From: Hormiphora californensis
Taxonomy: Eukaryota; Animalia; Ctenophora
Reading direction: 5' to 3'
Assembly (NCBI GenBank): GCA_020137815.1
Contig: CM035359.1
Span: 3,906,001 to 3,970,000, forward strand
DNA length: 64,000 bases
The notes beneath the pieces are model-generated. The model did not search any database and had not been told where the DNA came from. It was given only the letters and a program-made list of their open reading frames with translations. Positions 31,885-55,323 of the stretch are shown here, one piece after another. A program made the translations under genes and the position numbers. Every line of letters begins with the position of its first letter. The stretch's first letter is position 1.

Positions 31885-34800
31885 TCAGTCCCAGAGCAGA
31901 CCCTCAACCTTTGCATCAAGTCCAGATATCACATCCTCGATTTTCCTCCACTCATCAGTACTAACAGTAGGCTGAAGGGAGGTCCTATCTAGGACGGCAG
32001 ATAAGAAGGCGGTGCTCGAGCCGGCAGGTGGACCATTCAGACTAACAAACATCTCAGATACAACCTGTTTCATATCTTCACCCGGGAGGTATCTCTCTGT
32101 TAGGTTACCAAAGTCCTCACCGATCACCTCACTAACACTGAACGTTAGTAGCGTGTAAACCAGCTCGACCATCGGAGTGGGTAGATGGCGGAGTCCATTG
32201 ATCATTGCCATGTTTTTAATAGCCTCCTCAAGGCTGGACCCTCCTCTCATCCCTTCTACAAGGGACTGCTTCAAGGTGCAAAGGTCTCTCTCACGGAGAT
32301 CCCCCGATGTGACAAGAGGTTGCAGAATATCAAGGTTCAGTTCTGGTAGGTCAGGAGTCCATCCCTCTAGCAGGCCAGGTATGGTGGTCAAGGTTCCACA
32401 ACATGTGTTATTTGGTTGTTTCTGGAAGATATCTCCACAATTGTTGCACATCTGGGGAGCGAGGTCTCCCACGGGGTTTCTAGTACCCCCAACAAGCTCA
32501 CTGAGGAATACCGCACCTTGGATGAGCCGCTGTATGTTCGTACCATTCCTGTACCCCCAGCTACCATGGCTTATAAACATGTAGTGATCCGTTAATTCCT
32601 TCAGCTTGTCCAGAAAGTTCTGGTGGTCTACATAGATGTCTTGGATGTCTTGGGCATCGTCATTTGTTTGGGGGTCCAGTAATAACACAAGGGTGTCCTT
32701 GTATTCTTTTCCAAAAAATTGGGTAGAAGCGGAGGCATATGCTGAGACGGACAGCCTGTGTAGTCCCTCCTTTACTGCAAAACAAACAACGACCCACTGG
32801 TCCAACGTAATGTCTGGATTCTCAAATGCCTGGGAAAATCTGGCAAAGAATTCTCGTAATCCACACAGGAATAATATAGAGAGCCGTATAGCTGGATCCG
32901 TCATATTCTTGTCTTGGAGACAGTCTGGATGTGACTTTAAGTACTCCAGTGCCTTAGATACTTTCGAGTTTTTATCTGTTTCTATCGCCTTCTTCATGAT
33001 TTGATCCACAATGCGGGACCCATCCCAAAACCAAATACAACCCGAATCCTGATAGGACAGCCTATCCAAACCCAACATCTCCGTCTCTAGATTTTCCATG
33101 ACTTGGCAGTTGACAAACTGACCATCATAAACTGCCCCTTTAACGTGATATAACATCTCGGCAGCCCCAAGTACCTCCTTCAGACGTTCAAGAATGGAAC
33201 TTGCCAGACCCATCCCACTTTTATCCAGATGAGTAATGTAGAACACTTTTTTAAACGCTGCACCAGAGGTCTTGATGTCGGGTACTACAATGGCGATCGT
33301 ACACCTGGGGAAATAATTAACTAATTTTTTGGTCCCGAAGTCACTGGGGCGCTCGCGTGGACGGGTAATTTCATTACCAAATTTATTTTATTGTTTGGGC
33401 ACGTCACACACGCCAACTTACCAGTTGTCCCTGTGATCACTGATGATAAAAATCGGGAGCATGAAACCCATTTTCTCTGTAGCGTCATTCAGGTACTTTT
33501 GGAGGTTTTCAAACAGCACTTTCTCCATGACGTGGACCTGCTCGTCCAGGATACTCCGGTCAGGGTAGTGGTCCCCTAGGGTAACTCCCATCTTATTGAC
33601 AGTGTATACCAGATCTTCAAAACTCCTGAAACGTGTGGATTTAAAAAATCATCGTTTATTACCTTACTCTAGTTATTTAAGCTCCTATATTTCAAGAAGC
33701 TTTTAAACTTTTTTCTAAGAAACCGCAAGAGTAAGCAATCCAAAAACTAAAAGAAATTCTCGTTTATTAAGAAACTAAACAAGTTAGCGGTATCCAACTT
33801 TGTTGAGGTGTTTCTGAATTGTGTGATTTACACTTGAAAAGTTTCTTATAAACAAGTTTCTTACTGAAGTGTTTCTTAATAAACGAGAGTAAGGTATGTC
33901 ATCATCCACGAAGGAAAATAAAAAATAACAGCATGTATAGTAATAATTCTGAGGGATGGGGGATATACGTACTTGTCACAACAGCTGTATCTGATATCGT
34001 GGTATATGAGTTTCAGCAGCTTAAACTCAGTACTCTCCTCTTTTTGCAGCATCAATTCCTCCTCCCTCAGTCCCCTAGCTGCAGCTACATTTATCATGTG
34101 GCGCGGATGTTTTAGATGAACCCTTAGCTCGAATAACAGTCTAACCCACCGTTTCGTAAAGTGACCCTTTTCGTTTTTTACAGCGGCCAACTTGTATCCC
34201 TTTAAAGAAGGGCAGTCCTTACATCTCATTCTATTCACAGATTTATCCTCAAAATAACATGGTGCAGCCTTCAAAATTTCAGCGATGCTTTCAAGTCTCA
34301 CTAGACTCTCGGTAATATCTTCCGCTCCCTCCGATTCCACGTCCGTACAACCTGGAAAGGAAAATTGAAATTGAAATGTGATAATCTCCGCCAAAGTAAT
34401 CAATCACTAAAAGTTTGGAACACTACTAACCATCGTCAGAGCCGTCTACAACTGGAGTAGTAGTAGAAGATGTTTGAACATCCCTCTGTCTCCTTCCCTG
34501 CGCTGCGTTTTTTGTGTGGCGTGGATTTCTCAGGTGAGCTCTCATTGCACTCCAATTACATTTTGTAATATGCTTAAAGTTTTTGATCTTGAAGCCCTTG
34601 TGTAATTTAGGTGGGCAGTCCTTACATTTGATCATACTTTCAGCTTTATCCACAAAGAAAGGTGCTTCTTCTAAAATTTTAGCAAAGCCTTCCAATATCG
34701 CTAAATCTCCCTCTTCATCCTCATCATCTTCCGAACTCTGATCATCATTTTTTGCAATGCGACCTCTTTTCTTAACATTTTTTATGTGGTTTGGGTTTTT

Positions 34801-37393
34801 TAGGTGCTCCCTTAGATGGCGTAGCAGTCCACTCCATTTTTTTGTAAAGCGTCCCTTTTCATTTTTCATGGTGACCACTGTGTAGCCCTTTTGCGTCGGA
34901 CAGTCCTTGCATCTTATCCTATTTACAGTTTTATCCTCGAAAAAACATGGCGAAATTTCAGCGATGCTTTGCAATCTCACTAGACTCTCGGTAATATTGT
35001 CCATTCCCTCCGATTCCGCGTCCGTAAAACCTGGAAAGGAAAATTGAAATTAAAACATGATAATCTCAACTAAAAATATTTAATGTCTAAAAGTTTGGAA
35101 CACTTCTTACCATCCTCAGAGGCGACATCAACTAAAGGAGCTTTAGAAGAGGCGACATCAACTAAAGGAGCAGTAGAAGAGCAATGAACAATTGGCAAAG
35201 TCGTGGTGGAAGAGTTATGAACTGGTTCCTTGTAACTGATATCGACACTTTCCTTGTCTGCAGGGTCGGTACTCTGCAGCACTACTGCGTCCTCTCTCAT
35301 TCTCCTTGTTGCAGCAGCGTTTATTTTGTGCCGTGGATGTTTCAAATGAACCCTTAAATCGTATAACAGTCTAACCCACCGTTTCGTAAAGTGACCCTTT
35401 TCGTTTTTTACAGCGGCCAACTTGTATCCTTTTAGAGAAGGGCAGTCCGTGCATCTCATTCTATTCACAGATTTATCCTCAAAATAACATGGTGCAGCCT
35501 TCAAAATTTCAGCGATGCTTTCCAGTCGCACCAGACTCTCGGTAATATCTTCCGCTCCCTCAGATTCCGCGTCCGTAAAACCTGGAAACGAAAATTGAAA
35601 TTAAAACATGATAATCTCAACTAAAAATATTCAATCACTAAAAAAGTTTGGAACACTACTAACCATCGTCAGAGCCGTCTACATCCCTCTGTCTCCTTCC
35701 CTGCGCTGCGTTTTTTGTGTGGCGTGGATTTCTCAGGTGAGCTCTCATCGCACTCCAATTACATTTTGTAATATGCTTAAAGTTTTTGATCTTGAAGCCC
35801 TTGTGTAATTTCGGTGGGCAGTCCTTACATTTGATCATACTTTCAGCTTTATCCACAAAGAAAGGTGCTTCTTCTAAAATTTTAGCAAAGCCTTCCAATA
35901 TCGCTAAATCTGCCTCTTCATCCTCCTCATCTTCCGAACTCTGATCATCATTTTTTGCAATGCGACCTCTTTTCTTAACATTTTTTATGTGGTTTGGGTT
36001 TTTTAGGTGCTCCCTTAGATGGCGTAGCAGTCCACTCCATTTTTTTGTAAAGCGTCCCTTTTCATTTTTCATGGTGACCACTGTGTAGCCCTTTTGCGTC
36101 GGACAGTCCTTGCATCTTATCCTATTCACAGTTTTATCCTCGAAAAAACATGGCGAAATTTCAGCGATGCTTTGCAATCTCACTAGACTCTCGTTAATAT
36201 TGTCCATTCCCTCCGATTCCGCGTCCGTAAAACCTGGAAAGGAAAATTGAAATTAAAACATGATAATCTCAACTAAAAATATTTTATGTCTAAAAGTTTG
36301 GAACACTTCTTACCATCCTCAGAGGCGACATCAACTAAAGGAGCTTTAGAAGAGGCGACATCAACTAAAGGAGCAGTAGAAGAGCAATGAACAATTGGCA
36401 AAGTCGTGGTGGAAGAGGTATGAACTGGTTCCTTGTAACTGATATCGACACTTTCCTTGTCTGCAGGGTCGGTACTCTGCAGCACTACTGCGTCCTCTCT
36501 CATTCTCCTTGTTGCAGCATGCAGTTTATCATTGTGGCCGTGGATGTTTTAGATGAACCCTTAGCTCGAATAACAGTCTAACCCATCGTTTCGTAAAGTG
36601 ACCAATTTCGTTTTTTACAGGGGCCAACTTGTATCCTTTTAGAGAGGGGCAGTCCTTACATCTCATTCTATTCACAGATTTGTCCTCAAAATAACATGGT
36701 GCAGCCTTCAAAATTTCAGCGATGCTTTCAAGTCTCACCAGACTCTCGGTAATATCTTCCGCTCCCTCCAATTCCTCGTCCGTACAACCTGGAAAGGAAA
36801 ATTGAAATTGAAACATGATAATCTCACCTAAAAATATTCAATCACTAAAAAAGTTTGGAACACTTACCATCGTCAGAGCTGTCTACAACTGGCGGTTTAG
36901 CAGAAGAAGAGGTGTGAACTGGGTCCTTGTAACTAGTATCAACATATTCCATCTTTACAGGCTTCCCAACCTCAGACCCAATCATTTCAGCAGGGACTGA
37001 GTCATAGTAAAAAGGGTCAATACTTTCTGTTTTTATCAATGATCCAAGCTCTCCTCCAAACACCCCACAAAACTCAGTTTGTGTTCCCACTTCCACCAAC
37101 ATGGCTGTTTTAACAAGTCTGTACCCGGAACCCAGCCGGTGGTTTCCCGATATCCCACATCCCTCACAAGTTAATACAATGCTGCTCTGGTCGACTTGGG
37201 AACTTGAGAACTTGGGTTCAGAACACTGCGTTGCTGGAATCTTGGAGATTGTACAGGGTGGTTCATCAGTTGTAATATTACCACGTTCATCCACGTGGAT
37301 TTGTTCAGTTTTCAGAAGGGCAGGAATGTCGAATCTGGGTTTGAGGTTCTCTGAGCTATCAGAACAGGATCTATCAAGTTTTCGTTTTGCCAT
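31885..37393 (-). CDS. hAT-transposase-derived multi-exon gene with repeated N-terminal CxxC...H..H zinc-finger-like modules
   Basis: Repeated RCKDCP...HLK(N/H)P(N/R)H modules. Exon 33420-33625 reads GVTLGDHYP...PIFIISDH. The last exon has GAVYDGQF, WDGSR, SVSEVIGEDFG and EMFVSLNGPP, which resemble hAT catalytic and dimerisation motifs. One B-type exon copy is frameshifted near 36530. Confidence 0.6.
34080..36880. repeat. ~1.2-kb tandem duplication (about 2.3 units) of an exon pair plus introns
   Basis: Near-identical A exons at 34426-35030 and 35659-36233. B exons occur at about 33971-34351, 35110-35582 and 36313-36789. Confidence 0.9.
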
Positions 37394-38647
37394 GATATAT
37401 ATCCTGTATGGAAAAAGATAACATTAAAAATCTGTTCCCCATGCACATTGCTTTGGTGGGGTAAAGTTGGAGTAAAGTATTTTGAATCCGACTTTACACC
37501 ATACATTATAATTCCGATCTGCCCCTCATAAAATAATTCCATGAGGAACAATATCAAATCTACATATCATAGCGCTGGCAAGCGCCCGGGGCCCAATCCT
37601 CCCTCCCCCCAACCATCCTTCCCTTAAAAATGTCCATTTTCCAAGCATTCTTGCTTCCATTGAATGGAAAATCGAAATTGCGAAAAAAAAATTTTTTGAA
37701 TTTTTTGAAAATTTTTGAAAATTTTGACAGCGCTACTATACTTATTGTCTGAAATCGGCAATTTCAACTTTGTTTTAGACAACCTTCCCGTTGTCCTACG
37801 AACTTGTCGCTTGGTAGTTCGTGTTGCCTTGACACCTAGAGCACACGTTGAAAATTTCATGCAAATCGGAGTTACGGTTTTTACGTTACAGAGGGTCGTA
37901 TTTTCGACAAAATGTCCGTTTTTCGCGTCACGAACGACAGTAAAATAACCACTTTTTTGCGTACACAATAGAGGCCACAGTTTTAAAGCTATCACCATGA
38001 AACTTTGGGAGTCGGTAGGTCTAGTGGTGTACCTTGTATTAAAGCTTGGACAGAGAAAACGGACAGTCATAACAAAAGTTATGACTGTCTTAAGTTTTCT
38101 TTGGCGTTTAAGATGGCCTTCCCGTCGTTCTACAAATACGCCGCTTGGTACGCGGTGTTGCCTTGACATCTTGAACACACGTTCAAAATTTCAAGCAAAT
38201 CTGAGTTGCGGTTCGTCAGTTACGGGCATCTGACTGTATTAAGATTTAAGACGATTTTCAAAAAACCTAGAAAAGAGCAAATTAAACTACAAATCATGAT
38301 TTTATCATATATATTTTGCCAACGTATGTCAACTGCTGTATTTTCAGGTATAATTGGTAGTCATATCTAGATTTATGACTGTCTTAAATTTAAGACGATT
38401 TTAAAAAAACCTAGAAAGAAGCGATTCAGAGTCTAAATTAACATTGAATCAGATTTATGTTATAAAATTAGGTTTATTGCCGCATTTTCAGTTACAATTG
38501 GTAGTCATATCTAGAGTTATGACTGTCTTAAATATACGACGATTTTTAGAACACCTCGAAAGAAGCGATTCAGAGTCTAAATTTCCAGTTAAAATTGGTA
38601 GTAATGACTATAGTTATGACTGTCTTAAATAAAACGAGAGAGAGAGA

Positions 38648-38691
<44 letters not shown>

Positions 38692-38750
38692 GAGAGAGAG
38701 AGAGAGAGAGAGAGAGTAAGAGAGAGAGAGATAGAGATAGAGATAGAGAT

Positions 38751-38827
<77 letters not shown>

Positions 38828-38861
38828 GTCACCAATTACCTCCACTTAGCAGCCAATTATT

Positions 38862-38938
38862 CATCACTAGTATATATTGTACTGATTAGTTAGCCCCCGA
38901 TGGGGGCTAACTAATCAGTACAATATATGCTAGTGATG
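38862..38938. other. 37-bp stem, 3-nt loop hairpin; candidate left terminal structure
   Basis: catcactagtatatattgtactgattagttagccccc-gat-gggggctaactaatcagtacaatatatgctagtgatg, with one G-T mismatch. Confidence 0.85.
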
Positions 38939-39119
38939 GATTAAACAGCTAATCGTCATAATTACAATTGACATGCTGCTAACTAATCACAACATTCTAT
39001 GCTATAGTGATGGTTCAACTAATCGTGATAGCCAATTGACATGCTGTTAGCTAGTTACTGGGCGCTAACTATTATGTTACTAACATCGAATAATGTAATG
39101 AGTAGTCGCATTGTTTTGG

Positions 39120-39158
39120 TATAAAAACCAGATGGAAAAACCAAAGAGTATCACTTCC
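39120..39158 (+). promoter_or_regulatory. TATA box plus initiator for the element's large gene
   Basis: TATAAAA at 39120 and TCACTTCC at 39151 (31-bp spacing), about 80 bp upstream of ATG 39235. Confidence 0.6.
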
Positions 39159-39234
39159 GTTTGAATCGTAAAGTTCCTGATACAGATAAATCACAACAAT
39201 TACTCGATTGTCATTAATCCTTATTATATCTATT

Positions 39235-42200
39235 ATGTCTAAACTAGCTGTTGACTCACCATCGGTAAGTTGATTGTAATTGTATCTTAATTCTATTCTA
39301 CTGTTTGCGTTTACCAGTTTGTTGATGTTTGTTGTGTTTAGCCAAGTTTAATTTGTCCCAATTCTTAGGTGGTCGTGCTATCTGATAGCCTCTTCAAGTA
39401 CTTTGATAAGAAGCCATTACCTGCCCATGTGACCAACTTGTTCGTCAGTGGTGACAGGGTCGAGAGAATGACCCACCGTGTTAGTAATCTGCCTGTCGAC
39501 AAATCCGTTGATGATATCATTGTCATGGTCGGCACAAACGACCTCTGGCAACGATTTTCCTATTACACGTTTGCCAAATTCTACCACAACCTTATTGCGT
39601 GCATTGCTGACACATGGCCCTCTGCTGATATTCATTGCTGCCATATTCCGCCGAGGACGCATCAGCGTCAGAGAGGTACGTTGCGTTGCCTTACAAGTTG
39701 AAATTGTAACTTACTAAAATTATTAATTATCTATCACCCAGAACAATTGACTTATTGTAATGTCTTCTTCAGTTGCACCGTACATACCGTTGTATAATGA
39801 GGTAATCACGACTACTGCTGAACAGTTGGTTTCTGTGGTGCCTGTACCATCTGAATGGAGAGACCACATTCACTTGGCAAGGGACGGCCTTCACCTCGGC
39901 TACCCTGGTATCCAGCTGTATAGAAAGGCCACTATGGCATCTATATTTTACAAGAAGGTAAAGGAGAATTGTAACAGCTTGAATTAGGTGTTAGTAAACA
40001 TCCCTACTAAAATATAGTTCGACGCGACGCGACGCGCGATCGATGAACGATCGATAAACAATCGATATCGATCGTTTATCGATCGTTTATCGATCGTTCA
40101 TCGATCGCGCGTCGCGTCGCGTCGAACTATATTTTAGTAGGGATGTTGCATCGTTCGTAATCATGAATTATATCTGATATGTCTATATTGCTCTTCGCAG
40201 TACGTATAATATGTAAAGTAGTACAGTAGTGGTAATAGCAGTGCTATAGTGTATTATAGTTTCAAATTTCAATATTGTTTACGCTATGCTACATTTCATT
40301 ACAGGTCGCCACAGAGATTGTTCATGTCCCCGTCCAGCCCGTCTCAATAGAATCGCCCATCATTGCCACTACGGTGAAAGATATCACGATTCAATCTGAC
40401 CTAGTTGACCTACCAGTGGACCTACCAATCCAATCGGTAAGTATTCATAACCTATTTTGCTCGTGGAGTTGGAGTGCTAGGCCATGTTATAGAACGTGTA
40501 GCAGTACTAGCAATTAGTGGTTGTACAAACAAGCACTATTAGTCTTAGTACAGTAGCGGTAATCCGTAAAGCAGTGCTATAGTGTATTATAGTTTCAAAT
40601 ATCAATATTGTTTACGCTATGCTATGATATATTTCATTGCAGGTCGCCACAGAGGTTGTTCATGTCCCCGTCCAGCCCGTCTCAATCGAATCGCCCATCA
40701 TTGCCACTACGGTGAAAGATAACACGATTCAACCCGACCTAGTTGACCTACCAGTGGACCTACCAATCCAATCGGTAAGTATTCATAACCTATTTTGCTC
40801 AGTTGGAGCTGCTTAGGCCATGTTATATAGAACGTAGTAGCAGTACTAGCAACTTAGTGGTTGTAACAGTAACACTAGCACTATTAGTCTTAGTACAGTA
40901 GTGGTAATAGCAGTGCAGTGCTATATAGTGTATCATATTGTTTAAGCTATGCTATAATATTCTTCATTACAGGTCACTGCAGAGGTGTTACAAGTCCCCG
41001 ACCGACCCGTATCTATAACATCGCCTGTAATTGCCGTGAAAGATGTCACAGAGGTTGTCCAAGTGCCGTTCCCAATAGAATCTCCCACTGAAATTCAGTT
41101 TGGGGAGTTACACTATGATCACGGTATTCTCCGTCCGGATGTAAAGGTTAGAAGCGTTACCATTTTATGTGATGATCATATACTTAGTTCGTATTAGTCG
41201 CACTATTAGTCTTTATACAGTTATAGTGGTAGTAGCAGTGCAGTGCTATATATTGTATCATATTGTTTAAGCTATGCTATAATATTCTTCATTGCAGGTC
41301 ACCGCAGAGGTGTTACAAGTCCCCGACCGACCCGTATCTATAACATCGCCTGTAATTGCCATGAAAGATGTCACGATTCAATGCGACCTTACAGATGATC
41401 TACAAGTGGAGCTACCAGTCCAATCAGTAAGTATACCATTTCTTATTTTTCTCTGTGTTTATTTTAATTTTATCACTACATATTAGCGGAGTCCATTTTT
41501 ATATTTAACACTTTTCTTAGGTGTCAAAACCGAACAATTTAATAAGTCAGCAACTAATTGGAAAGCGGCATCCCCCAGTACCTCTAACACCGTCTCCGAA
41601 GCCACAATCATCTACCCGCCAGCACCGAAAGGATACCCCCTATATCATGCCGACTAGAAAACAGGTATAGTTACATTCAGTTTTCAAAGCAACATGGAAA
41701 TTATATGTACTGTGCAGGTGGACACCGTAATAATTGAGAAATTATTAGTATTTTTTATCACTTTTAGCGGAGTCCATTTTTATATTCAACACTTTTCCTA
41801 GGTGTCAAAGCCGAACAATGTAATTGGAAAGCGGTATCCCCCAGTACCTCTAACACCTTCTCCGAAGCCACAATCATCTACCCGCCAGCACCGAAAGGAT
41901 ACCCCCTATACCATGCCGACTAGTAAACAGGTATAGTTACATTCAGTTTTCAAAGCAACATGGAAATTATATGTACTGTGCAGGTGGACACCGTAATAAT
42001 TGAGAAATTATTGGTATAGTACAAAATTAATTTATCTTTACCATCAGATGTACAAGAAGCGGTCCGTGATACCTGATTCAATGGTTTTACCACATGCAAA
42101 TGGTGCAGATGTAATCTTTTGTGGCAGATTCATCCACTTTACCACTGAGCTACCAGTACTGGAGACACCCGTTTCAGAAGAGGTAGTTTATGGAGGTGGT

Positions 42201-45200
42201 GGGAAAAGTCTTAAGAGGAAATCTTCATTCACACGAAAAACCAGACGAAATAAGAGTAATATTGGTACGTACAAGCTAATTAGTTCAATTACATGTTCAT
42301 TTTATAATTCATTATTATCTTCTTACACTTCCAAAAAAATTAGTTGATATTGATAAAGATCCGATTATCCGTACTAACTTTGTCCTTTCTCCTCAGTTAC
42401 TACGCAACCTACCACTAACAGCGACGAGAATTTTGCAGACATAATTGATGAGGCTGAGGCTCTTAATGCACTACCTCGAGAAGCAATTACTGTCGATACA
42501 ACGTCAAAGTACATAAGGTATAACAAATCAGAGAAAGGACTGAAACGTAGTGCTAAATATTTACTGAACCGTTCATTGTCACAGCCTCACAGCACCATCC
42601 ATACCAATCATTCTCAGTCTGACAGTAGTGAGCAACGTAACCAATCACAGCCGGTCACTACCTCTGTATCGAGACACGTCACATATAACCATTCAGAGAA
42701 GGGGATTGCACGGAAAGTGGCTCATCTAGTTAGAGTTTTATCTACACCCGGTCACATTGAACACATGCGAGCACTTTCGGCACGTAGATCAAGGACAAGG
42801 AGGGCACGGAAGGCAAGCGGGGACCGGTGGGTAAAGCATTACGCTCTGTATCTGCGACGGCGCTCACGGATGCATCAGCAATCTAAAGACAGATTAAATA
42901 GAAGGAAAGGTATCATGGCTAGAGGGCTTAGATTACGTAACACTATTCGTGGTAACATTTCATTTCCTGTTGATTTTGATATACGTGGTTCCAATAGAAA
43001 AGTGGCACTATCTGTGATTAGAAGTCATGATACATCCAGAACTCCTGAGTCAGTTACTCGTTCTTTTAGACTTAATAAGTCTACAATCATTCATGGGAGG
43101 TCAAAGTGCCGATTGCCCATTTTGCCTTTGAGCCGTCACAAGTTTATAGTCAAGTCCAAGTCTCGGATGGGTACTGCATCTCGTGCAAACTTCTACATAG
43201 CGGCACAGAAAACATTAGGTAATGCTCTTGGACACTTTAGTCGTTCTGCGTTACACAATATCAATAAAGTACTGTTTGATGAAACCCCACCCCCTAAGCC
43301 AATTTGTTCTAAAAACTTTATGGTTGCCCGTATATGTAAGTCATTAATTGGTAGATGTCTTGAACGGCGTGACCAGTGGGTTAAGATTGTATATTCTGCC
43401 ACTAGTGATCTTATTGACAATGCCGCTGCTATCCTAGCAAAACAGGATCTGACAAATATGGAGGACTCTGAACTTCTTGGGGGTGCTACTCATGGGGTCG
43501 GTTTTGAACCATTCTTTCCTCAGCACAGTTTTCTTAATGGTAAACATTATAAGTTTGATAAAAGCAAGGGAAGTTCGCCTTGTACGGTTGATTGCATTCC
43601 CGCAGATCAGGACGATATCCAGTCCTTTAAAGAGCTTCTCTCAATTGTCGAGTGTTCTAATGTTTCTAGGGGCAGGGAGCTGTCTATGTTACTGGTTAAG
43701 TGTTCCAACCAACTTACAAGGTCTAGTGAGCAGGACCGTTATTTGCTAAATGTTGAGCACAGCAATCATCCTGAAACCTGTTACCGTCCTCAGAGTCTTT
43801 GTAACAGCAAGCTTGTCCTATTAAAACGACTTGCTGTTCATTATGCTGTACCCAGGCAGTTTCTTACTTGTGTCAGTCGACTTAACATGGCGCACAATTT
43901 TATATGTGATCTCGATTCCGCTGTATCGGCGGGCGATATTGAATATCTAATGAAACTTTTAGCGTACATTCCTTATATTAGTCCTACTATTATAAAACTA
44001 GATAGGTGTTCTGTTCATGTGAATGAAGACACAATGAACGAAAAATATGGTTCTCATTTTCAGACATTTGTCGAGAGTATTTCCAATCTCTCCGAGACCG
44101 CGTGTGTTTCTTGTACCCGTTTAATACTTGATTCTGAATCAATCCTTCTGACTCCACGTATCATTACCCCCCGTCTTAAGAATCCTATGTCTGGCTATAG
44201 CAAACTATTTCAATATCTTAACTCTTCTGATCGCAAACGAAAAGGTTATAATCCTGTATCGAAGCTCGAAGGGATGCGAGTTTGCAATTATTGTCACACA
44301 CGTCTTATAAAGGGGGAAGTTCCTAGGATTGGAATAGAGAACCATATGGATCCTGGTGTTGTGCCGGAATGTATTCGCAAGCTCACTCAGATTGAGCTTA
44401 TGTTTATCAAACCCATGTCAATGTATCAGAGCATTACGTACTGCGGAGCAGTTGGGGGATACGTTAGGAAATCAGAACAGCAGAGGCGTGCGAAAGGTCA
44501 TGCAATCTATCTTCCGGTACCACTTAACGACACTATTGAAAAGCTAATGCTTTGTTCTGGAAAACCTAGGAAGCTTTTAGATATTCCTAGTCATGTGAAG
44601 TTAATTGGTATTCCAAAGGCCGATAGAAGTACCTGGATGAGGTTAATTAATATCAATCTCATTTATGAGTGCCTGCAGTGGCTAAAAGCCAACAATCCTA
44701 ATTATTGTGATATTGTGATTCCAGAGTCAGCAGACTGCCTTTTAGACTTTTTAGCCGATATCCCTACTAGTGACGAGTCATCTAACGGCAACTGTTCTAA
44801 TGGGAGTCATCATTCAGGCGATGTTCCTTCTGTGATCGTTAGTCAAGGGAATGGTAGCAATAGTACCGATGAGCTTATTTCCATCGACTTGGACGCGACA
44901 AGCTCTAGTTATACTTCTGATGAAGTTGGTGCTCCAGGTGTCAAGGGGTGTGCAGTTGCTACTAGGAAAAGGGCGTTGGTGGATGACAGCAGTTGCGAGG
45001 AGGGCGAGGGCAGGTGTCATCATTCAGGTTCTGGGTCTGCTCCTTCTATGATCGTTAGTCAAGGGAATGGTAGCAATAGTACCGATGAGCTTATTTCCAT
45101 CGACTTGGACGCGACAAGCTCTAGTTATACTTCTGATGAAGTTGGTGCTCCAGGTGTTAAGGGGTGTGCAGTTGCTACTAGGAAAAGGGATTTGGTGGAT

Positions 45201-48200
45201 GACAGCAGTTGCGAGGAGGGCGAGGGCAGGTGTCATCATTCAGGTTCTGGGTCTGCTCCTTCTATGATCGTTAGTCAAGGGAATGGTAGCAATAGTACCG
45301 ATGAGCTGATTTCCATCGACTTGGACGCGACAAGCTCTAGTTATACTTCTGATGAAGTTGGTGCTCCAGGTGTTAAGGGGTGTGCAGTTGCTACTAGGAA
45401 AAGGGCTTTGGTGGATGACAGCAGTTGCGAGGAGGGCGAGGGCAGGTGTCATCATTCAGGTTCTGGGTCTGCTCCTTCTATGATCGTTAGTCAAGGGAAT
45501 GGTAGCAATAGTACCGATGAGCTTATTTCCATCGACTTGGACGCGACAAGCTCTAGTTATACTTCTGATGAAGTTGGTGCTCCAGGTGTCAAGGGGTGTG
45601 CAGTTGCTACTAGGAAAAGGGCTTTGGTGGATGACAGCAGTTGCGAGGAGGCCGAGCCCAGCTCTAAGCGTGGTGGTATGGCAGATATTGCTACCACCAA
45701 TGTAATTTTAGATATCTGCCGCCGACTTATAGCTAGTTGTACTCTTTGTAAAAAATGCAGAGTGGATATTAACAAAACTAGGTTAGACCTTGGGACCTTC
45801 GGTTATGTTACATATAGTTCTAGTGATCTCCGGAAACTGCTTTGTGATTTACGCCTTTCTTATTTAAGTCTCAATTGTAGAAGTGTCGTTTGTAGTATAA
45901 GTAATTGTAATGCTCCTTTGAATGGCCGTAAAAAAGCGTTGAAAAAGGTAGGGAAATCCAAAAATATTGCCTGCAATATTGACAGCTTTTGCTCAACCGT
46001 GGAACTAATTAGACAGAATTATATTATGTCTATGGAAATACTGGATCACCTTCTAATAGCTAACCAAATATGCAAAGGGTGTCTCTCATGGTTGTCTAAA
46101 AAAGCAGCAGTACCTGATGCAGCCTTCATGCTCGTTAGTATCAAGTCAACTAAACCTATGTTAAATATTTACCTTTTATCTGAAAGGCTTTATGCATACC
46201 TTAATAACATGAAATGTTTAAATGGTTTAAAGGCCAGTGGACAGTGTCATCATTGCCTAGGTGTCGTTCCAGATGAGTTGAGTAAGGAATTGTTTAATTC
46301 AACTGACTGTATCTCCGGTGAGGAGGGTATCATTGGTGCAACTTCTATGTTTCAGCAATTGTCTCAATTAATTAACTGTACTCGTTCTTCTTGCGATAGT
46401 TCAACCTTACCGGGACGAAAGAATGCTGGTGGATGTGACACTGGTCCGGTCAAAAGTTCTAATCTTGACTCTGCAAAAACCAATAAGGATATTGATACTG
46501 ATATTGATACTGATATTGATACTGAAAGCAATTCATCTCTTTCGAAATCCTTATCAGGTTCTGCAGCAGAAAGTGCAGTTTCTTTTGATTCGTTTCCAGG
46601 TCTAAGTGACATCAATGATGATGTCATTAAAAATGGTCCAATGATCGAAAAAATGAACCGTGATGACTTTCTTAACTTTGTTGATAGTTACACGGTTACA
46701 GGTATAGATCAGCAAACGGACGACCCGTACACTGATTTATACAAACTTTTAAAAGTCGATAGCAAGCCTGGGGATTTTAACGATCCCCTTATTGAAAATT
46801 TGTGTTTTCCAGAATTGTTCCCATTTGGCGAAGGCACCAAGTCGGATGCCAGGGGGGAAGATAGCGATGCCAAAGTGGGTCATTTACTTTACGAGAAAGC
46901 TAGGTTGCTATCAGAAAATGGGACGTTTAGGAGAAATATTCCTTACCTTTTTTATCTTGCGTCTCAAAATGAGAAGAGAAAAATTGGTCAAGGTATATCT
47001 GCTGCCTTGCGTAATGTGTCTGGATTTGGTAGTCTCACATCTCGCCAAATTCTGGATATGATCCAGAACAACGACGAGAAATTAATACGCCACATGACTA
47101 GGACCATGTCTAATATTCCTGGTACTGAGCAGTACTTTAGTTCTGCAAAAGTTAAACTTAGGGCCCAAACTGAGAAATTTGGACCACCAACATTCTTCGT
47201 TACCTGCAGCCCTGCCGAATTTGACTGGAAGGAGCTAACTGCTCATTTACGGGAGCGCAATAAGGATATTCCTGATGTTGATAGACTTTCGGATAGCGAA
47301 CTTATAGCAAGGGATCCTGTTACCGCGTCGTCATACATACATCGCAAATTCGATGCTCTGTTAAAGTTTATAGTGGAATCTAAATGCCTGGGCGAGGTTA
47401 AAAGCTGGTTTGTGAGGCATGAGTACCAGACTCGTGGTACGGTACATTATCATTTTCTTTTATGGATTAAGGATGCTCCTGTAATTGGTAAGGATAGCGA
47501 TGAGAATGTTGCCAATTTTCTAAGTGAACGTATTACTTGTCGTATCCCTGATGCTGTTAACGAACCAAAACTACATAGGATAGTTACTAAGTTCCAGAAA
47601 CACCGGTGTGGGCCTTACTGTAAGAAAAAGTTTAGGCATAGGAATGGCCACTTTATATCTACACAGTGCAGGTTTTCATTTCCTCGTAGTCCATCAAAGG
47701 TCTTCAAGTTGCACGATGTTAAGGATACTATAGTTGGGCGGCGTTCAGGCAACTTGAAGAAACGTCTCTATAGCTTACCGCGAACGAAGGATGAGGTCAA
47801 CATCAATGATTATAATGCAGTTATTTCATATTTATGGGAAGGTAATATTGATATCCAGTTCCTTTCGGAGAAATCATTCAGTGTCTCGGCATATGTTAGC
47901 AAATACTGCCTGAAGGCCGAGAAGAGTAATCTAAACTTCTCAATTGAAAACACTACTGGTAACAACATGACTGCAAATCAGCAATTTCATAAATTTGTAT
48001 ACAGTTGTCTCCGGCAAAGAGAGATGAGTGCTATGGAAGCTGCAGACCGCATACTCCACAATAATGGCGAAATGTGGAGAAGTTCCGAGACATTCGAATG
48101 GGTTCCAACTGTTTCTCCCGGTCATGGTCGACGTAGGTTAATGAAAAAGTACAAGGATTTAGAAGGTCAGGATCCTAATTCAACTGATGTTTTTATTCCT

Positions 48201-51200
48201 GATATGATTCATGTATTTTATCCTAATCGGCCTCAATGTCTTGATGACATGAGTCTTCATGATTTTGTTTCCACGTATGAGCGGTTATACGGGAAAACGG
48301 GTGGAGATGTCCTTATTCGCGATCCCACTACTAAAAAGGTCTTGGCACGATTCAAGAAACGGGCTAAGCAACCGATCATATACCACCATCGGTATTCCCA
48401 CAGGACTAAGCCAGAAAAGTTTTACTATTCACTGCTTGCTCTTCATAAGCCCTGGAGAACGGAGGGCGATATTTTAGGGCCAAGTGCAACCTATGAAGCT
48501 GAGTTCTTTAGGTGCATTGCGGACAGGTCTGAGCTTAAGTCGCGGGCAGAGGCCATAATTAACATAGAGCAAGCCCGTGAAACCATGGAGCAACGCGTCA
48601 ACGAGGACCTCACTAAGGGGCCAGAATCCCAGCAATGTTCTGATGGGATCGAAAACGATGCTCTGATTGCATTTGAGGCTTCTAGGTCTGGGGCAGCTGT
48701 ATCATCTGATGAACTTGAAACTATCATTCAAACCTTGAATATAGATCAGCGGTCCATTTTCGATTTAGTTGTTGATAAAGTTACCAACGACAAGCAGCTC
48801 CTTCTTTATGTCTCTGGGTTTGGGGGGACAGGGAAGTCTTATGTTTTAAAAGCAATAACTTCCTATATTAGGCTCCATAATAAAGATGTCCTTCTAGCTG
48901 GTCCTACTGGTCTTGCTGCTAAAAACATTTCGGGTATGACTCTGCATTCGATATTTAATCTTCTGGTTGAGCACGGTTGTCAGCCTAAGTACAGTGCCCT
49001 TAAAAAACCGGTCTTGGATCAAATGCGGGCTGTTTTTAAAGATCTTCAGTGCATAATTATTGATGAAATTAGCATGGTTTCTAATGTTCTCCTCTTATAT
49101 GTCCATTTTAGGCTTAACGAGATATTTGCTCCTGGTGGTGGTCAGCTATTTGGTGGTAAACACGTTATAGTGTTTGGGGATTTGCTTCAACTTCCCCCAG
49201 TTATGGCCCAGCCTCCCTATGTTACTTTGCCTGAAATAGAAGTTCATAAATTAACTAACGGCCTACCTCAAGAAATTAACCTATGGCAACATTTTGAATT
49301 TAAAGAGCTTACCATTAATCAGAGGCAAAAGGGCCAAGAAAATAAATTGTATTCCGATCTCTTAGGAAGGTTAAGGCTTGGTGCATGTATTCCAGATGAT
49401 TTTAGTATGCTTAATTCTAGGGTTATAAACTTGGGGGGGACGTCGCCGGAAGAGCTACGCAAGTCACTGGTAGATCGTTATCTGTCAGTTGCCCAGATCG
49501 AACCGTCTGTCGTATGCCTTCTACCTAAACGATCCATGGTTAAAGATTTTAACGGGGCTATAATGGCACGTAATTTCCCGGATGCAGAAAAGGTCGAGGC
49601 GGTAGATGAGGTGGAGCAATCAGGGAGGAAAAACAAGAAGTTGGAGAAGAACATTATGGACGCAGTTAGAAAGTTAGATGACGAAGGGGATGATAGGAAC
49701 ACAGGGGCTCTAGAAAAAGTTCTCTTTCTAGCCCCGGGTGTAAGGTGCATGTTGAGGCAAAATCTCGATGTACCGAATGGCTTGACAAACGGCACAATCG
49801 GTACTATTGTGACACTTCAGAGGGACAACGGAGGAGTAGTGGATAAACTGGTTGTGCAGTTTGATGGATGTAAGGAACCTGTCACTATACACCGCGAGAA
49901 ACGGAAGATCATGGTATTTACAAACGGTTACTTCTACAGGGAACAATTCCCCGTCACCGTGTGTTACTCGATGACCGTTCACAAGAGTCAGGGTTTGTCG
50001 CTTAAGTCTGCATTTGTGGATATCGGTCTCTCCATCTTTGAAGCTGGTCAAGTTTACGTTGCCTTGTCAAGGGTCACCTCTATGGCTGGGTTACATATAA
50101 TCAATCTAGCACCTGCAAAAATATTTGCGAGAAAGGACGCGTTGGTGGTTTACAAGCACATGGGAAGCAAGCCTTTGCATGATTCAGTTAGACCGGGGAA
50201 TCAGGAGCCTGTCGAGCCTGGTCCAGGAGAGCGTATTTGGTATACTACTGCATCGTCTAGGTTGGCTAGAAGTACTATCAAATCGACAATTTCCAATATG
50301 GCATCAAAGGTTAAGGATAAGGTTAAGCGTACCCTCAAAGGTCCTCTTCCTACTACCACTAAAAATCCTTCTAAGCGGTGTCATAGCGATGTCCTCAGTG
50401 TTACTTCTGATAATCTTTCTAGTCATATAGATGCTGTGTTTGCTATTACGTCACGTTCTAGCTATTTTCATAATTTTACTCGTATCGAGATTGCAACTAT
50501 TTATTCAGATTTGATACTTCCAACAGCCCAATTAGTGGCTGCCGGCAGGGTTCCATCTACTTTAAGGTGCGAACTATCTCTTCAGCTAAACCCTGATCCA
50601 TTTTCAGTATTAAGTTACACCCGATATAAATGGTTAAGTGGGTCACTCATGACACGGTATATATGGTATCTGCAGGATACCATTCAAAATTTGTCCATGT
50701 ACAGTATGGGGTACGGGGTTGAAGAATCGTATGGTATTGTAGGGCTAAACAAGAGTGAAGAACACTTTAGCCAAAAACGATTTTGCCTCAAGCAATACTC
50801 CTTAAATGGCACTGCTGCCAGGTACAGTCGCAGAGGTGAAATCGTTAAGGCCGGCCATCCAATGGATAAGGATTTAGTTGTTGTATTAGGAAACCCAGGT
50901 AATCATTGGATCCTGGTAATAGTAGACAATAGACCATCTAAGAGGTGCGTCTTATATTTTGATTCTGCCAGTAAAAGCATCCCTAATTCCCTCAAAAAGA
51001 GGAGGTGTCAGAAGTATGTAGCGTTCATTAAGAAATGGTGTGATTACTTACCAATAAAATATGGTGTCTGCAGTAGTGCTGGCGGTATAATGGATACCGC
51101 TACGTATAGGTTTACTAATTTAGACGGTAAATCCAATCAACAGGACAATACTTATGACTGTGGCGTATTTGCTCTTTCAAATTTAGAACAGTACTTGTTG

Positions 51201-51305
51201 GGTAATGCGGTGACTACGGTTCGGGCTCGTGACATGGTTGGAATTAGGGCACAACTCATGCACCGCATTTACACCCATGGGATCAACACTGGGTACATCG
51301 TTTAG
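39235..51305 (+). CDS. Spliced SGNH hydrolase - repeat linker - Rep/Helicase - C48 protease protein (~3,495 aa, 11 exons)
   Basis: Exons 39235-39264, 39369-39675, 39773-39957, 40305-40436, 40643-40774, 40973-41146, 41298-41426, 41521-41664, 41802-41930, 42048-42264 and 42397-51305. All are GT-AG, phase-compatible and free of stops, totalling 10,488 nt. Confidence 0.75.
39369..39957 (+). CDS. SGNH/GDSL hydrolase domain (exons 2-3 of the element gene)
   Basis: Block I VVLSDSL, block II SG, block III MVGTNDL, IPPR, and block V DGLHL in the next exon. Confidence 0.85.
39997..40147. mobile_element. 151-bp near-perfect palindromic MITE in intron 3 of the element gene
   Basis: aacatccctactaaaatatagttcgacgcgacgcg... 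is mirrored by ...cgcgtcgcgtcgaactatattttagtagggatgtt. Confidence 0.8.
42576..51305 (+). CDS. Helitron RepHel ORF (HUH Rep plus Pif1-family SF1 helicase) with C-terminal Ulp1/C48 cysteine protease
   Basis: Rep motifs FFVTCSPAEFDW, EYQTRGTVHYHFLLW and YVSKYCLKAE. Helicase motifs GFGGTGKS, IIDEISM, GDLLQLPPV, QFPV...TVHKSQGLSL and GQVYVALSRV. Protease motifs HWILVIVD, YFDS and QQDNTYDCGVF. Confidence 0.97.
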   Translation: MSQPHSTIHTNHSQSDSSEQRNQSQPVTTSVSRHVTYNHSEKGIARKVAHLVRVLSTPGHIEHMRALSARRSRTRRARKASGDRWVKHYALYLRRRSRMHQQSKDRLNRRKGIMARGLRLRNTIRGNISFPVDFDIRGSNRKVALSVIRSHDTSRTPESVTRSFRLNKSTIIHGRSKCRLPILPLSRHKFIVKSKSRMGTASRANFYIAAQKTLGNALGHFSRSALHNINKVLFDETPPPKPICSKNFMVARICKSLIGRCLERRDQWVKIVYSATSDLIDNAAAILAKQDLTNMEDSELLGGATHGVGFEPFFPQHSFLNGKHYKFDKSKGSSPCTVDCIPADQDDIQSFKELLSIVECSNVSRGRELSMLLVKCSNQLTRSSEQDRYLLNVEHSNHPETCYRPQSLCNSKLVLLKRLAVHYAVPRQFLTCVSRLNMAHNFICDLDSAVSAGDIEYLMKLLAYIPYISPTIIKLDRCSVHVNEDTMNEKYGSHFQTFVESISNLSETACVSCTRLILDSESILLTPRIITPRLKNPMSGYSKLFQYLNSSDRKRKGYNPVSKLEGMRVCNYCHTRLIKGEVPRIGIENHMDPGVVPECIRKLTQIELMFIKPMSMYQSITYCGAVGGYVRKSEQQRRAKGHAIYLPVPLNDTIEKLMLCSGKPRKLLDIPSHVKLIGIPKADRSTWMRLININLIYECLQWLKANNPNYCDIVIPESADCLLDFLADIPTSDESSNGNCSNGSHHSGDVPSVIVSQGNGSNSTDELISIDLDATSSSYTSDEVGAPGVKGCAVATRKRALVDDSSCEEGEGRCHHSGSGSAPSMIVSQGNGSNSTDELISIDLDATSSSYTSDEVGAPGVKGCAVATRKRDLVDDSSCEEGEGRCHHSGSGSAPSMIVSQGNGSNSTDELISIDLDATSSSYTSDEVGAPGVKGCAVATRKRALVDDSSCEEGEGRCHHSGSGSAPSMIVSQGNGSNSTDELISIDLDATSSSYTSDEVGAPGVKGCAVATRKRALVDDSSCEEAEPSSKRGGMADIATTNVILDICRRLIASCTLCKKCRVDINKTRLDLGTFGYVTYSSSDLRKLLCDLRLSYLSLNCRSVVCSISNCNAPLNGRKKALKKVGKSKNIACNIDSFCSTVELIRQNYIMSMEILDHLLIANQICKGCLSWLSKKAAVPDAAFMLVSIKSTKPMLNIYLLSERLYAYLNNMKCLNGLKASGQCHHCLGVVPDELSKELFNSTDCISGEEGIIGATSMFQQLSQLINCTRSSCDSSTLPGRKNAGGCDTGPVKSSNLDSAKTNKDIDTDIDTDIDTESNSSLSKSLSGSAAESAVSFDSFPGLSDINDDVIKNGPMIEKMNRDDFLNFVDSYTVTGIDQQTDDPYTDLYKLLKVDSKPGDFNDPLIENLCFPELFPFGEGTKSDARGEDSDAKVGHLLYEKARLLSENGTFRRNIPYLFYLASQNEKRKIGQGISAALRNVSGFGSLTSRQILDMIQNNDEKLIRHMTRTMSNIPGTEQYFSSAKVKLRAQTEKFGPPTFFVTCSPAEFDWKELTAHLRERNKDIPDVDRLSDSELIARDPVTASSYIHRKFDALLKFIVESKCLGEVKSWFVRHEYQTRGTVHYHFLLWIKDAPVIGKDSDENVANFLSERITCRIPDAVNEPKLHRIVTKFQKHRCGPYCKKKFRHRNGHFISTQCRFSFPRSPSKVFKLHDVKDTIVGRRSGNLKKRLYSLPRTKDEVNINDYNAVISYLWEGNIDIQFLSEKSFSVSAYVSKYCLKAEKSNLNFSIENTTGNNMTANQQFHKFVYSCLRQREMSAMEAADRILHNNGEMWRSSETFEWVPTVSPGHGRRRLMKKYKDLEGQDPNSTDVFIPDMIHVFYPNRPQCLDDMSLHDFVSTYERLYGKTGGDVLIRDPTTKKVLARFKKRAKQPIIYHHRYSHRTKPEKFYYSLLALHKPWRTEGDILGPSATYEAEFFRCIADRSELKSRAEAIINIEQARETMEQRVNEDLTKGPESQQCSDGIENDALIAFEASRSGAAVSSDELETIIQTLNIDQRSIFDLVVDKVTNDKQLLLYVSGFGGTGKSYVLKAITSYIRLHNKDVLLAGPTGLAAKNISGMTLHSIFNLLVEHGCQPKYSALKKPVLDQMRAVFKDLQCIIIDEISMVSNVLLLYVHFRLNEIFAPGGGQLFGGKHVIVFGDLLQLPPVMAQPPYVTLPEIEVHKLTNGLPQEINLWQHFEFKELTINQRQKGQENKLYSDLLGRLRLGACIPDDFSMLNSRVINLGGTSPEELRKSLVDRYLSVAQIEPSVVCLLPKRSMVKDFNGAIMARNFPDAEKVEAVDEVEQSGRKNKKLEKNIMDAVRKLDDEGDDRNTGALEKVLFLAPGVRCMLRQNLDVPNGLTNGTIGTIVTLQRDNGGVVDKLVVQFDGCKEPVTIHREKRKIMVFTNGYFYREQFPVTVCYSMTVHKSQGLSLKSAFVDIGLSIFEAGQVYVALSRVTSMAGLHIINLAPAKIFARKDALVVYKHMGSKPLHDSVRPGNQEPVEPGPGERIWYTTASSRLARSTIKSTISNMASKVKDKVKRTLKGPLPTTTKNPSKRCHSDVLSVTSDNLSSHIDAVFAITSRSSYFHNFTRIEIATIYSDLILPTAQLVAAGRVPSTLRCELSLQLNPDPFSVLSYTRYKWLSGSLMTRYIWYLQDTIQNLSMYSMGYGVEESYGIVGLNKSEEHFSQKRFCLKQYSLNGTAARYSRRGEIVKAGHPMDKDLVVVLGNPGNHWILVIVDNRPSKRCVLYFDSASKSIPNSLKKRRCQKYVAFIKKWCDYLPIKYGVCSSAGGIMDTATYRFTNLDGKSNQQDNTYDCGVFALSNLEQYLLGNAVTTVRARDMVGIRAQLMHRIYTHGINTGYIV
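44807..45651 (+). repeat. In-frame 216-bp (72-aa) tandem repeat, about 4 copies, inside RepHel
   Basis: tcatcattcagg recurs at 44807, 45017, 45233 and 45449. The peptide unit is ...NSTDELISIDLDATSSSYTSDEVGAPGVKGCAVATRKRALVDDSSCEE. Confidence 0.95.
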
Positions 51306-51650
51306 TAGAATATTTTCTATTATCATTATTGCAATTTCTTTTCTGTGAAAAGTGATTTATGTGAAAACCGATTTTTCTGTGAAAACTGATTTCTGTGCAA
51401 ATGAATTCTGTGAATTCTGTGAATGTTTCAAGAGCGATTAATTGTGGCAGATTCTGAATAACAATTACATATTCAAACCTGAAAACTGTATTTTACTAAT
51501 GTCTTATTCCAAACCTTAGGCAACGTTCAACACGTACTAAAACGAATGACGCACCCCCCTCCCAGCTAAACTGCTCATTGCGCAATTTATTGAACCTGTA
51601 CACTACCTCTTGGATAATCGTATAACTAACATAATCACTTCCCATTTAGA

Positions 51651-52756
51651 ATGGCGTTGCTAATTGTTATGATATTTCTGTCGGCCAGTGCAACTAAGGA
51701 CTTCATAGTGTACGAGAAACAAGCGATGCTCCTAGTGAAGGACGACATTGTTCCACGTATGTAATTGTGACTTTTTGTTGGCTGTACTACTGTGTGTAAC
51801 ATAACGTATGTGGTCTTGGTAAGTAAGTATTTACATTTCCTGCCCCTCTCCGTGTATTTAGAAGGTATTTCATATATTAACACCTACAACCATCGCAGAT
51901 TATGGGGATGAGACTCTACTGAGGCTTCACCTTGTTGTACCTAAGCCTGCCATTATAAGGCCAGCACGAATGCGACTTGCGATCAAAGCTCAAGAGGATG
52001 TGGCCACATTACGACTCTTTCAACCGTAAGTATTATAATATTATAATATTAATAATAGCGGATAGCTTTAGGAAGTCTACAATGTTCTAGTGAAGACTTT
52101 ATTATTATTAGTAATTACAGCTACTATCCAGGGGCCAGGTCTAGATGGGCTGAATGGTTATTAGCACACGTCTAGAATTGAGGGAGGATTTCTTAATATG
52201 ACGTTTACCAAAGAACATCATACTCAGGAATCTCATCATTATGTTCACCCAGGTGTATAAAATATTGGATGGACATGGAAGATACTTTGATGGAACGAAT
52301 ACAATCCTGTTCTTGTCAAAACCCGACAAGTAAGTTGAACACTGCTTCTAGAGCCAAATCTTCTCAGTTTGACTTGGAACTACGTGAATCCAATTGAATA
52401 ATACCATTTGCATTATAATAATATAATGTACAAACTAAATTACGGAATTTTCAAATAGGAAAACGAAGAAAGGCCGGGTCCACCGCTGTCAGCAGAGATG
52501 GATATTTACGAGGCCTCATGATGAACGATGCTGAAGTCCGTAAAGGCCTCAAAAATCAGGTAACATAAGCCTCATGCTAAATTATGTGGTAATAAAGTCG
52601 GACAAACTCCAATTGACTCTAAAATGGCATGTGTCCTTTCAGGTTAAGATCAACAAAAACGACATAGTGATACATATGCTATTCGCACAAGAACTGAAGA
52701 TCAAATGGGAGATCGATAGCTGCATGGATTCTGCAATTGATTACTTCGCACAGATT
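51651..52756 (+). CDS. Spliced secreted or membrane protein gene (5' part) with signal peptide and furin-like RKRR; possibly envelope-like; exon 3 disrupted
   Basis: Exons 51651-51756, 51899-52025, 52121-52329, 52459-52559 and 52643-52756 have compatible phases. The protein starts MALLIVMIFLSASA and contains PTRKRRKAG...GYLRGLMMNDAE. Three in-frame stops lie at 52173-52196. The 3' part is lost in noisy sequence. Confidence 0.45.
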
Positions 52757-52797
52757 GTAAGCATCTTCATACTCCTTCTCTCACTCTCTATAATCTC

Positions 52798-52849
<52 letters not shown>

Positions 52850-53029
52850 CTCTTCCCCCTCCCCCCTTTCCTCTCCTCTCCTCCTCCCCTCTTTTCCTCT
52901 CTCTCTCTCTCCCCTCTTCCTCCCTTCCCCTTTTCCCAATTTTTTTTCAATTGGGGGCAAAGGAGGGGGGTCACGGGGGATGTTTTTTTTGGGGGAAAAA
53001 AAAATGAAAGGTTTTAATTTTTTTTCAGT

Positions 53030-53061
<32 letters not shown>

Positions 53062-54990: not shown

Positions 54991-55180
54991 GCATGATACT
55001 AGATCCAAAAACCAAACAAGTTTGGTGGATAACCGGGGCCTCTCACTCAACAATTATATCTCCCTCTCCCCTAACTTTTTACTCGTGGGTATAGTAATTC
55101 TCTCTCACTCACACACATTCTGGTATAATATCAATTGCAACTGGTTGCACAGCATTTTTATTGAAGGGGATCTTGGCCGT

Positions 55181-55323
<143 letters not shown>

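Follow-up and report, generated by a model that had tools for sequence, protein, structure and literature searches.

We analysed a 64,000-nt stretch of the genome of the ctenophore Hormiphora californensis (CM035359.1, assembly GCA_020137815.1), hereafter called the window, and give all coordinates as window positions. It contains a Helitron-like element whose long open reading frame (ORF) encodes a RepHel protein and, directly 5' of this ORF, a chain of ten short exons encoding a predicted SGNH hydrolase domain (Table 1). Pfam searches gave the domain order DUF6570-Rep-PIF1-Peptidase_C48 (Ulp1) for the long ORF, with Rep (HUH, Y2) followed by the PIF1 helicase within a single frame. DUF6570, matched here at E 3.9e-18, is described as a marker of the HLE2 group in the HELIANO text (PMC11417382). 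By its predicted domains, the element is an HLE2 (Helentron-group) rolling-circle transposon. The long ORF had no Pfam match to a C-terminal apurinic/apyrimidinic (AP) endonuclease and ends in Peptidase_C48; in the strict sense, therefore, the element does not qualify as a Helentron. Among the 120 RepHel homologs listed, the top 27 share 41-49% identity with the window protein, and Mnemiopsis and Pleurobrachia proteins are among them; the named nearest relatives are ctenophore proteins. In a quick tree, the window RepHel and a Pleurobrachia protein formed a pair in which each has a long branch.

A long hairpin is a candidate 5' terminal structure of the element. It folds with a z-score of -9.9, none of 200 shuffles folding as well, and sits after a GA microsatellite and before a TATA box, about 300 nt 5' of exon 1. 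No 3' partner repeat was found as an 11-nt exact or 14-nt one-mismatch match in 51306-64000, a search qualified by the seemingly low quality of the sequence beyond 52950, and neither paired subterminal repeats nor a matching 3' inverted repeat were found. Since no downstream partner repeat was found, the ends of the element are not defined.

The exon chain agrees with the initial annotation of this locus, made from the sequence alone, which had proposed ten exons with GT-AG introns in phases 0,1,0,0,0,0,0,0,0,1. The introns measure 94-347 nt. As also proposed, the acceptor at 42396 enters the long ORF in frame: exons 1-10 joined to 42397-51305 form an uninterrupted frame of 3,495 codons, and the other two frames of exons 1-10 contain 26 and 33 stops. 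The long frame itself, annotated as a 2909-aa ORF, also stands, with a corrected beginning: its start at 42576 is a TTG, and the first in-frame ATG lies at 42765 (2,846 aa).

We scored splice signals with a hand-set generic matrix that was not trained on this genome. All ten donors of the chain fell within the top 16 of 245 GT dinucleotides and all ten acceptors within the top 20 of 205 AG dinucleotides, with the AG ending at 42396 ranking first. In each of the ten exon-intron pairs the G+C content was higher in the exon than in the following intron (0.41-0.53 vs 0.24-0.38). A frame-blind intron search under three settings recovered five, six and seven of the ten introns exactly and chose acceptor 42396 every time. 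Because this search reached only five to seven of ten, signals alone are insufficient to fix the chain, and frame and homology supply the rest. Exons 4/5, 6/7 and 8/9 are tandem duplicates. Their exon indels (3, 6, 15 and 18) are all multiples of three, and the intron indels between duplicated units mostly are not. The annotated TATA box and initiator (Inr) are also present: TATAAAA lies at 39120 and is followed 33 nt later by an Inr-like TCACTT. Because there are three such pairs among the 87 TATA-like sites of the window, they are only suggestive of a promoter.

We assign the domain encoded by exons 2 and 3 to the SGNH hydrolases by its Ser, Gly, Asn and Asp-x-x-His residues, and predict that it is an esterase. 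The catalytic residues are intact, as the initial annotation had read them, in SDS (motif start 39381), the block II Gly (39450), GTND (39531) and DGLH (39883). The residue codons lie at 39387 (Ser, block I), 39450 (Gly, block II), 39537 (Asn, block III) and 39883 and 39892 (Asp and His, block V). Block I reads SDS, as it does in the related protein P0122. The Lipase_GDSL_2 match of exon 2 is slightly below the curated Pfam cut-off, while Lipase_GDSL is above it. Against a profile built from nine natural SGNH proteins, exons 1-2 scored 107 bits, and 131 once exon 3 was joined to them.

A full-library search with the SGNH domain returned 14 matches. The nearest relatives (P0122, P0123 and P0125) are 31-37% identical in alignment; P0122 and P0123 are SGNH-AlkB fusion proteins, and P0125 stops where AlkB would start. 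A word-indexed search with exon 2 among proteins of 180-2000 aa gave no match, and an SGNH profile search among proteins of 318-2000 aa, a size range that excludes a 3,500-aa fusion, returned only P0122, P0123 and P0138. In a quick tree of 13 rows, the window SGNH joined the group of these nearest relatives at a support of 83 (not starred). The only row with a layout like that of ORF1 of a long interspersed nuclear element (LINE), P0138, was sister to this group with a Shimodaira-Hasegawa-like approximate likelihood ratio of 87, also not starred. PDB entry 4c1b ("ORF1-encoded protein"), which we take to be the ZfL2-1 esterase, aligns over SGNH profile positions 3-173 (E 4.9e-7) and scores 33 bits, vs 41 for a bacterial protein resembling platelet-activating factor acetylhydrolase. 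Capture of the domain from a LINE ORF1, as suggested by the initial annotation, is possible rather than established. No transmembrane stretch or hydrophobic anchor was found in the first 530 aa of the spliced protein, and the membrane role suggested in the initial annotation is conjectural. P0122 itself is an SGNH-AlkB-linker protein encoded on a 16.9-kb contig, with a tail of KGGG, basic residues and FIDDEA, and could be the 5' gene belonging to a related HLE2; no viral-contig locus of P0122 was found.

The SGNH exons are probably spliced in frame onto RepHel. This part of the initial annotation is well supported by the sequence, and as a transcript it is a prediction. The rank-1 acceptor at 42396 matches the phase-1 donor at 42265 and would equally fit an alternative donor from the frame-blind search, at 42199, which is also in phase 1, 151 nt inside exon 10. 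The long frame, open from 19 nt 5' of this acceptor, continues for 122 codons without a stop or in-frame ATG before its first ATG (P 0.001 by base shuffle). This stretch carries a repeat motif of the type Y-x-x-S/T-x-x-G-K/R that 13 of 14 relatives also have in their N-termini. An mRNA capped at 42397 would meet two short out-of-frame ATGs before 42765. Neither AATAAA nor ATTAAA occurs between 39121 and 42890. Contigs of the one same-species run (X1) covered nothing of 38830-52780 and gave only scattered short matches on a control stretch with host genes, and so speak neither for nor against transcription.

Downstream of the join, an alignment of 25 RepHel rows (excluding P0004, P0025 and P0028) revealed a Cys-rich module between DUF6570 and Rep in 22 rows, with 4-7 CxxC motifs each. 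All 22 have a Gly-Gly within 100 aa before the module (shuffle mean 6.4, maximum 13; 2,000 shuffles), and 21 have one within 60 aa after it (shuffle mean 7.2, maximum 15; 2,000 shuffles). We call these sites A and B. In 14 of the 22 rows there is no further Gly-Gly in this spacer of roughly 600-1000 aa. Gly-Ser, Ser-Gly and Asp-Gly are, unlike Gly-Gly, not enriched at site B, and the flanks of the pairs are only 10-15% identical. Position P4 is hydrophobic in 17 of 21 rows at site B and in 10 of 22 at site A. Two ORFs with a short spacer that are nested in the clade (P0026 and P0027) have neither the module nor the Gly-Gly sites, and P0002, which is missing most of the module, keeps two Gly-Gly. 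Among 93 more distant HLE2 proteins, which have a short spacer, seven have a Gly-Gly there. The conserved Gly-Gly sites suggest that the predicted SGNH-RepHel fusion is temporary.

A third candidate site lies in exon 10, where VYGGGG is followed by basic residues just 5' of the join. The low-complexity linker of P0122 likewise ends in KGGG and a basic stretch. We also considered LLGG at spliced aa 888 and rejected it, its second Gly not being kept in relatives. The Cys-rich module (45675-46433) had no convincing atlas match (best 0.82) and is limited to this clade among 118 proteins examined.

The C-terminal domain of the long ORF is, by its modelled fold, a clan CE (C48) protease with a SENP fold, a His-Asp-Cys triad and an oxyanion Gln. 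The predicted model has a predicted local distance difference test score of 74, and its best fold matches were SENP2, SENP1 and Ulp1 (E 2.5e-7 to 2.5e-6), with a further match to pS273R of African swine fever virus (ASFV; E 1.6e-5). Adenain has the consensus hydrophobic-x-Gly-Gly, and SUMO is matured after Gly-Gly. The ASFV polyprotein pp62 is described as cut at Gly-Gly-Xaa (PMC9950752), and pS273R-like viral and SENP/Ulp1-type protease families are reported to cluster together (PMC10318531).

We tentatively propose that the locus encodes a spliced esterase-linker-RepHel-protease polyprotein that is cut after Gly-Gly by its own Ulp1-type protease, a reading that we regard as quite possible. 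Transcription from the TATA box at 39120 and cis-splicing of intron 10 would give one mRNA and a 3,495-aa polyprotein. The protease of the element would then cut after Gly-Gly at about aa 504, 1620 and 1872, yielding an esterase-plus-linker, a piece with the basic repeats and DUF6570, the Cys-rich module and a Rep-helicase-protease. If the join is granted, we lean towards these three cuts and four products. The esterase would thus be co-produced with RepHel and then released, and might act as an accessory enzyme on lipid or other acyl esters, by analogy with the role proposed for texim, an SGNH gene paired with Helitrons in fish. A broader version is that HLE2 of the ctenophore clade make their whole protein set as a virus-style polyprotein, with SGNH or SGNH-AlkB spliced onto RepHel and freed at Gly-Gly; this we consider doubtful.

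Several observations weigh against this proposal. Homology 5' of the first ATG is weak: the score is 4.4 bits, which one of 200 shuffles exceeded. The SGNH domain was found in none of the 120 listed RepHel homologs, ctenophore gene models included. Most of these are unspliced ORF calls; P0012, though, has a different N-terminus. Conversely, none of the 14 SGNH matches is fused to RepHel, and no SGNH match was found in 101 loci of distant RepHel or PIF1 relatives (80 metagenome, 21 viral). At least 56% of Hormiphora reads are reported to carry trans-spliced leaders (PMC8527503), and a spliced leader could use acceptor 42396. In platyfish, the texim cDNAs are annotated as genes apart from the Helitron, each ending at a stop of its own (PMC4021074).

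The predicted cleavage meets further objections. Sites A and B of the window itself lack a hydrophobic P4, and the Gly-Gly of exon 10 is known from the window sequence alone, with no orthologs for comparison. No conserved Gly-Gly occurs between helicase and protease in the aligned rows. In 12 of the 25 rows the ORF call keeps the Gly-Gly sites but ends before the protease His and Cys, an end probably caused by an intron. Because we set the Gly-Gly windows with the sequences already in view, and because the rows are related to one another, the shuffle figures are evidence of a pattern and not P-values.

The same splice evidence would fit a permanent fusion, in which the esterase remains attached to RepHel, the Gly-Gly pairs serve as flexible hinges and the protease strips SUMO- or ubiquitin-like tags off host proteins. 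In its favour, cellular SENPs are the best fold matches of the protease, zebrafish Helentron proteases of another family are described as deubiquitinases (PMC9741609), and sites A and B of the window deviate at P4. The restriction of the site B enrichment to Gly-Gly, which does not extend to Gly-Ser, Ser-Gly or Asp-Gly, argues against it, as do the persistence of the pairs within such divergent flanks and their loss along with the module in both module-less short-spacer ORFs. We consider a permanent fusion rather unlikely.

Two separate products, in the manner of texim, are another unlikely arrangement. Here SGNH would be cargo with its own 3' end, and RepHel would be translated from ATG 42765 on a separate mRNA or one resolved by a spliced leader. 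Retention of intron 10 would indeed lead to a stop at 42347. Platyfish texim has its own stops and lies 5' of or around the Helitron ORF (PMC4021074), spliced-leader trans-splicing is reported as common in ctenophores (PMC8527503), and the fused protein is absent from the protein database searches, of which the profile search covered 318-2000 aa. Such an mRNA leaves unexplained why the 122 codons that separate the first in-frame ATG from the acceptor are open and ATG-free, and would place two out-of-frame ATGs before the in-frame one. The phase match of intron 10 (one in three by chance) also favours the join, as does its lack of a canonical poly(A) signal, though none lies closely 3' of the RepHel stop either. 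Finally, it is very improbable that the SGNH exons belong to a host gene beside which a Helitron landed, joined in frame by chance: the element ends are not defined and no paired subterminal repeats were found, but the SGNH proteins closest to this one carry a fused AlkB domain, which is almost exclusive to HLE2 among Helitron-like elements (PMC11417382), the hairpin lies 300 nt 5' of exon 1, and we saw neither a terminal structure nor a boundary of the element where exon 10 gives way to the long ORF.

The pairing of SGNH with a Helitron is already known from texim. In platyfish, texim are SGNH genes of 15 exons, and the Helitron coding region lies either in their last intron or 3 kb 3' of them; they are reported from fish only (PMC4021074). 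The pairing is likewise described in guppy assemblies (PMC7643365), where long reads showed the Helitron co-transcribed with texim (10.1101/2023.09.29.560175). The window element shares with the fish systems a Helitron coding region that is directly preceded by an SGNH gene of many exons. Texim is a separate gene whose capture is described in bony fish only, and the available texts state no in-frame fusion (PMC4021074; 10.1101/2023.09.29.560175). The window element, in contrast, is from a ctenophore, has a predicted in-frame join and a RepHel ending in Ulp1; the likeness is one of layout. New here are the non-fish lineage, the predicted in-frame join and the Gly-Gly pairs that bracket the Cys-rich module; the literature covered, which lay outside Repbase, Dfam and subscription journals, showed neither an SGNH-RepHel fusion in frame nor Helitron Gly-Gly sites. 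Texim has been linked to sex chromosomes and to colour in guppies, and the proposal that it was captured in fish alone would be called into question by an SGNH-Helitron pairing outside fish. If the broader version of our proposal is true, the partnership is old and common to comb jellies and fish, and texim would be part of a transposon's own protein set, not a fertility gene captured in fish.

The element resembles other HLE2 in its DUF6570-Rep-PIF1 core, and Peptidase_C48 and 2OG-FeII_Oxy_2 are among the HLE2 cargo listed (PMC11417382). It differs from strict Helentrons, having no AP endonuclease. The terms GDSL, SGNH and lipase are absent from the HELIANO text and supplement, as far as these were available (PMC11417382). 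Intron-split cargo could escape ORF-based surveys, in which an ORF must reach 100 nt and is scored by itself. Like the LINE ORF1 esterases (CR1/L2 type), this SGNH domain is carried by a mobile element; unlike them, it is split by introns, sits at the N-terminus, lacks the coiled-coil context of an ORF1 and is nearer to SGNH-AlkB proteins. Rotifer Terminons are also reported to carry GDSL esterases (PMC6431247).

With ASFV pS273R, adenain and SENP/Ulp1, the protease shares its fold and His-Asp-Cys order, and the candidate Gly-Gly sites of the element resemble the Gly-Gly-Xaa cuts of ASFV pp62. Unlike the viral clan CE systems, the element has the protease and the predicted cleavage sites in one transposon chain with no capsid gene seen. 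For the role of Helitron cysteine proteases, the literature seen offers deubiquitination, an activity found in the zebrafish proteases by Erven et al. (PMC9741609), or unspecified RepHel cleavage: Thomas et al. (2014) speculated that Helentron OTU proteases cleave RepHel, with no sites named in the text available (PMC4067079). With three named Gly-Gly sites, self-processing becomes testable with one construct.

Table 1. Features of the SGNH-RepHel locus in the window.
Feature	Position	Strand	Remarks
Long hairpin, ~37-bp arms	38862-38938	.	candidate 5' terminal structure of element
TATA box and Inr-like motif, candidate promoter	39120-39156	+	consensus match only
Exon 1	39235-39264	+	begins with ATG, 10 codons
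Exon 2	39369-39675	+	SGNH blocks I-III; Pfam Lipase_GDSL_2 E 1.6e-7
Exon 3	39773-39957	+	SGNH block V
Near-perfect palindrome, 151 bp, inside intron 3	39997-40147	.	insertion resembling a miniature inverted-repeat transposable element (MITE-like)
Exons 4-9 (span)	40305-41930	+	tandem-duplicated phase-0 exons; 280-aa Val/Pro/Thr-rich linker
Exon 4	40305-40436	+	
Exon 5	40643-40774	+	
Exon 6	40973-41146	+	
Exon 7	41298-41426	+	
Exon 8	41521-41664	+	
Exon 9	41802-41930	+	
Exon 10	42048-42264	+	VYGGGG and basic stretch; phase-1 donor at 42265
Exon 10 Gly run of VYGGGG	42192-42203	+	candidate cleavage site
Intron 10	42265-42396	+	predicted SGNH-RepHel joint
Exon 11	42397-51305	+	basic repeats, DUF6570, Cys-rich module, Rep (HUH/Y2), PIF1 helicase, Ulp1/C48 protease
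Gly-Gly site A, 5' of Cys-rich module	45672-45677	+	22/22 module-bearing rows
Gly-Gly site B, between Cys-rich module and Rep	46428-46433	+	21/22 module-bearing rows
Ulp1/SENP-fold protease	50475-51302	+	His 50904, Asp 50961, Gln 51141, Cys 51159 are invariant columns

Within the RepHel ORF, 3.9 copies of a 216-bp unit run in frame directly before site A (44825-45656), and relatives have unrelated repeats at the matching position. The Helitron region is flanked by (GA)n on the left (38636-38825) and (TC)n on the right (52777-52911) in inverted orientation, which may be chance in this microsatellite-rich genome. Just 3' of the RepHel stop, exon-like segments (51652-52770, + strand) begin with one that opens with a signal-peptide-like hydrophobic run. 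Two later segments have in-frame stops in their longest frame, and the group may represent either cargo of the element or a host gene in decay. The homopolymer-rich, seemingly low-quality assembly at 52950-54540 may conceal the 3' end of the element.

On the other side, 31885-37423 (- strand) contains a 500-aa ORF without a Pfam match, presumably hAT-transposase-like, and, ahead of it, a tandem array of exons that encode C2H2-like zinc fingers. These minus-strand ORFs are probably a separate DNA transposon, and 144-bp subterminal-type repeats lie near them (38244-38531). Nested inverted repeats at 28003-30104, with arms of 213-264 nt and 98% complementarity, resemble a foldback element. A 1.1-kb unit at 55184-56887 has long terminal inverted repeats, (TC)n on its left and (GA)n on its right, and holds a short minus-strand ORF with a signal-peptide-like start. 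The window further contains an MFS transporter ORF (13169-14587), a LINE with endonuclease and reverse transcriptase (21745-24648), a TBC-domain exon (27519-27968) and, both read by eye, sulfotransferase-like exons (57318-58500) and a LINE-like fragment (58581-60299).

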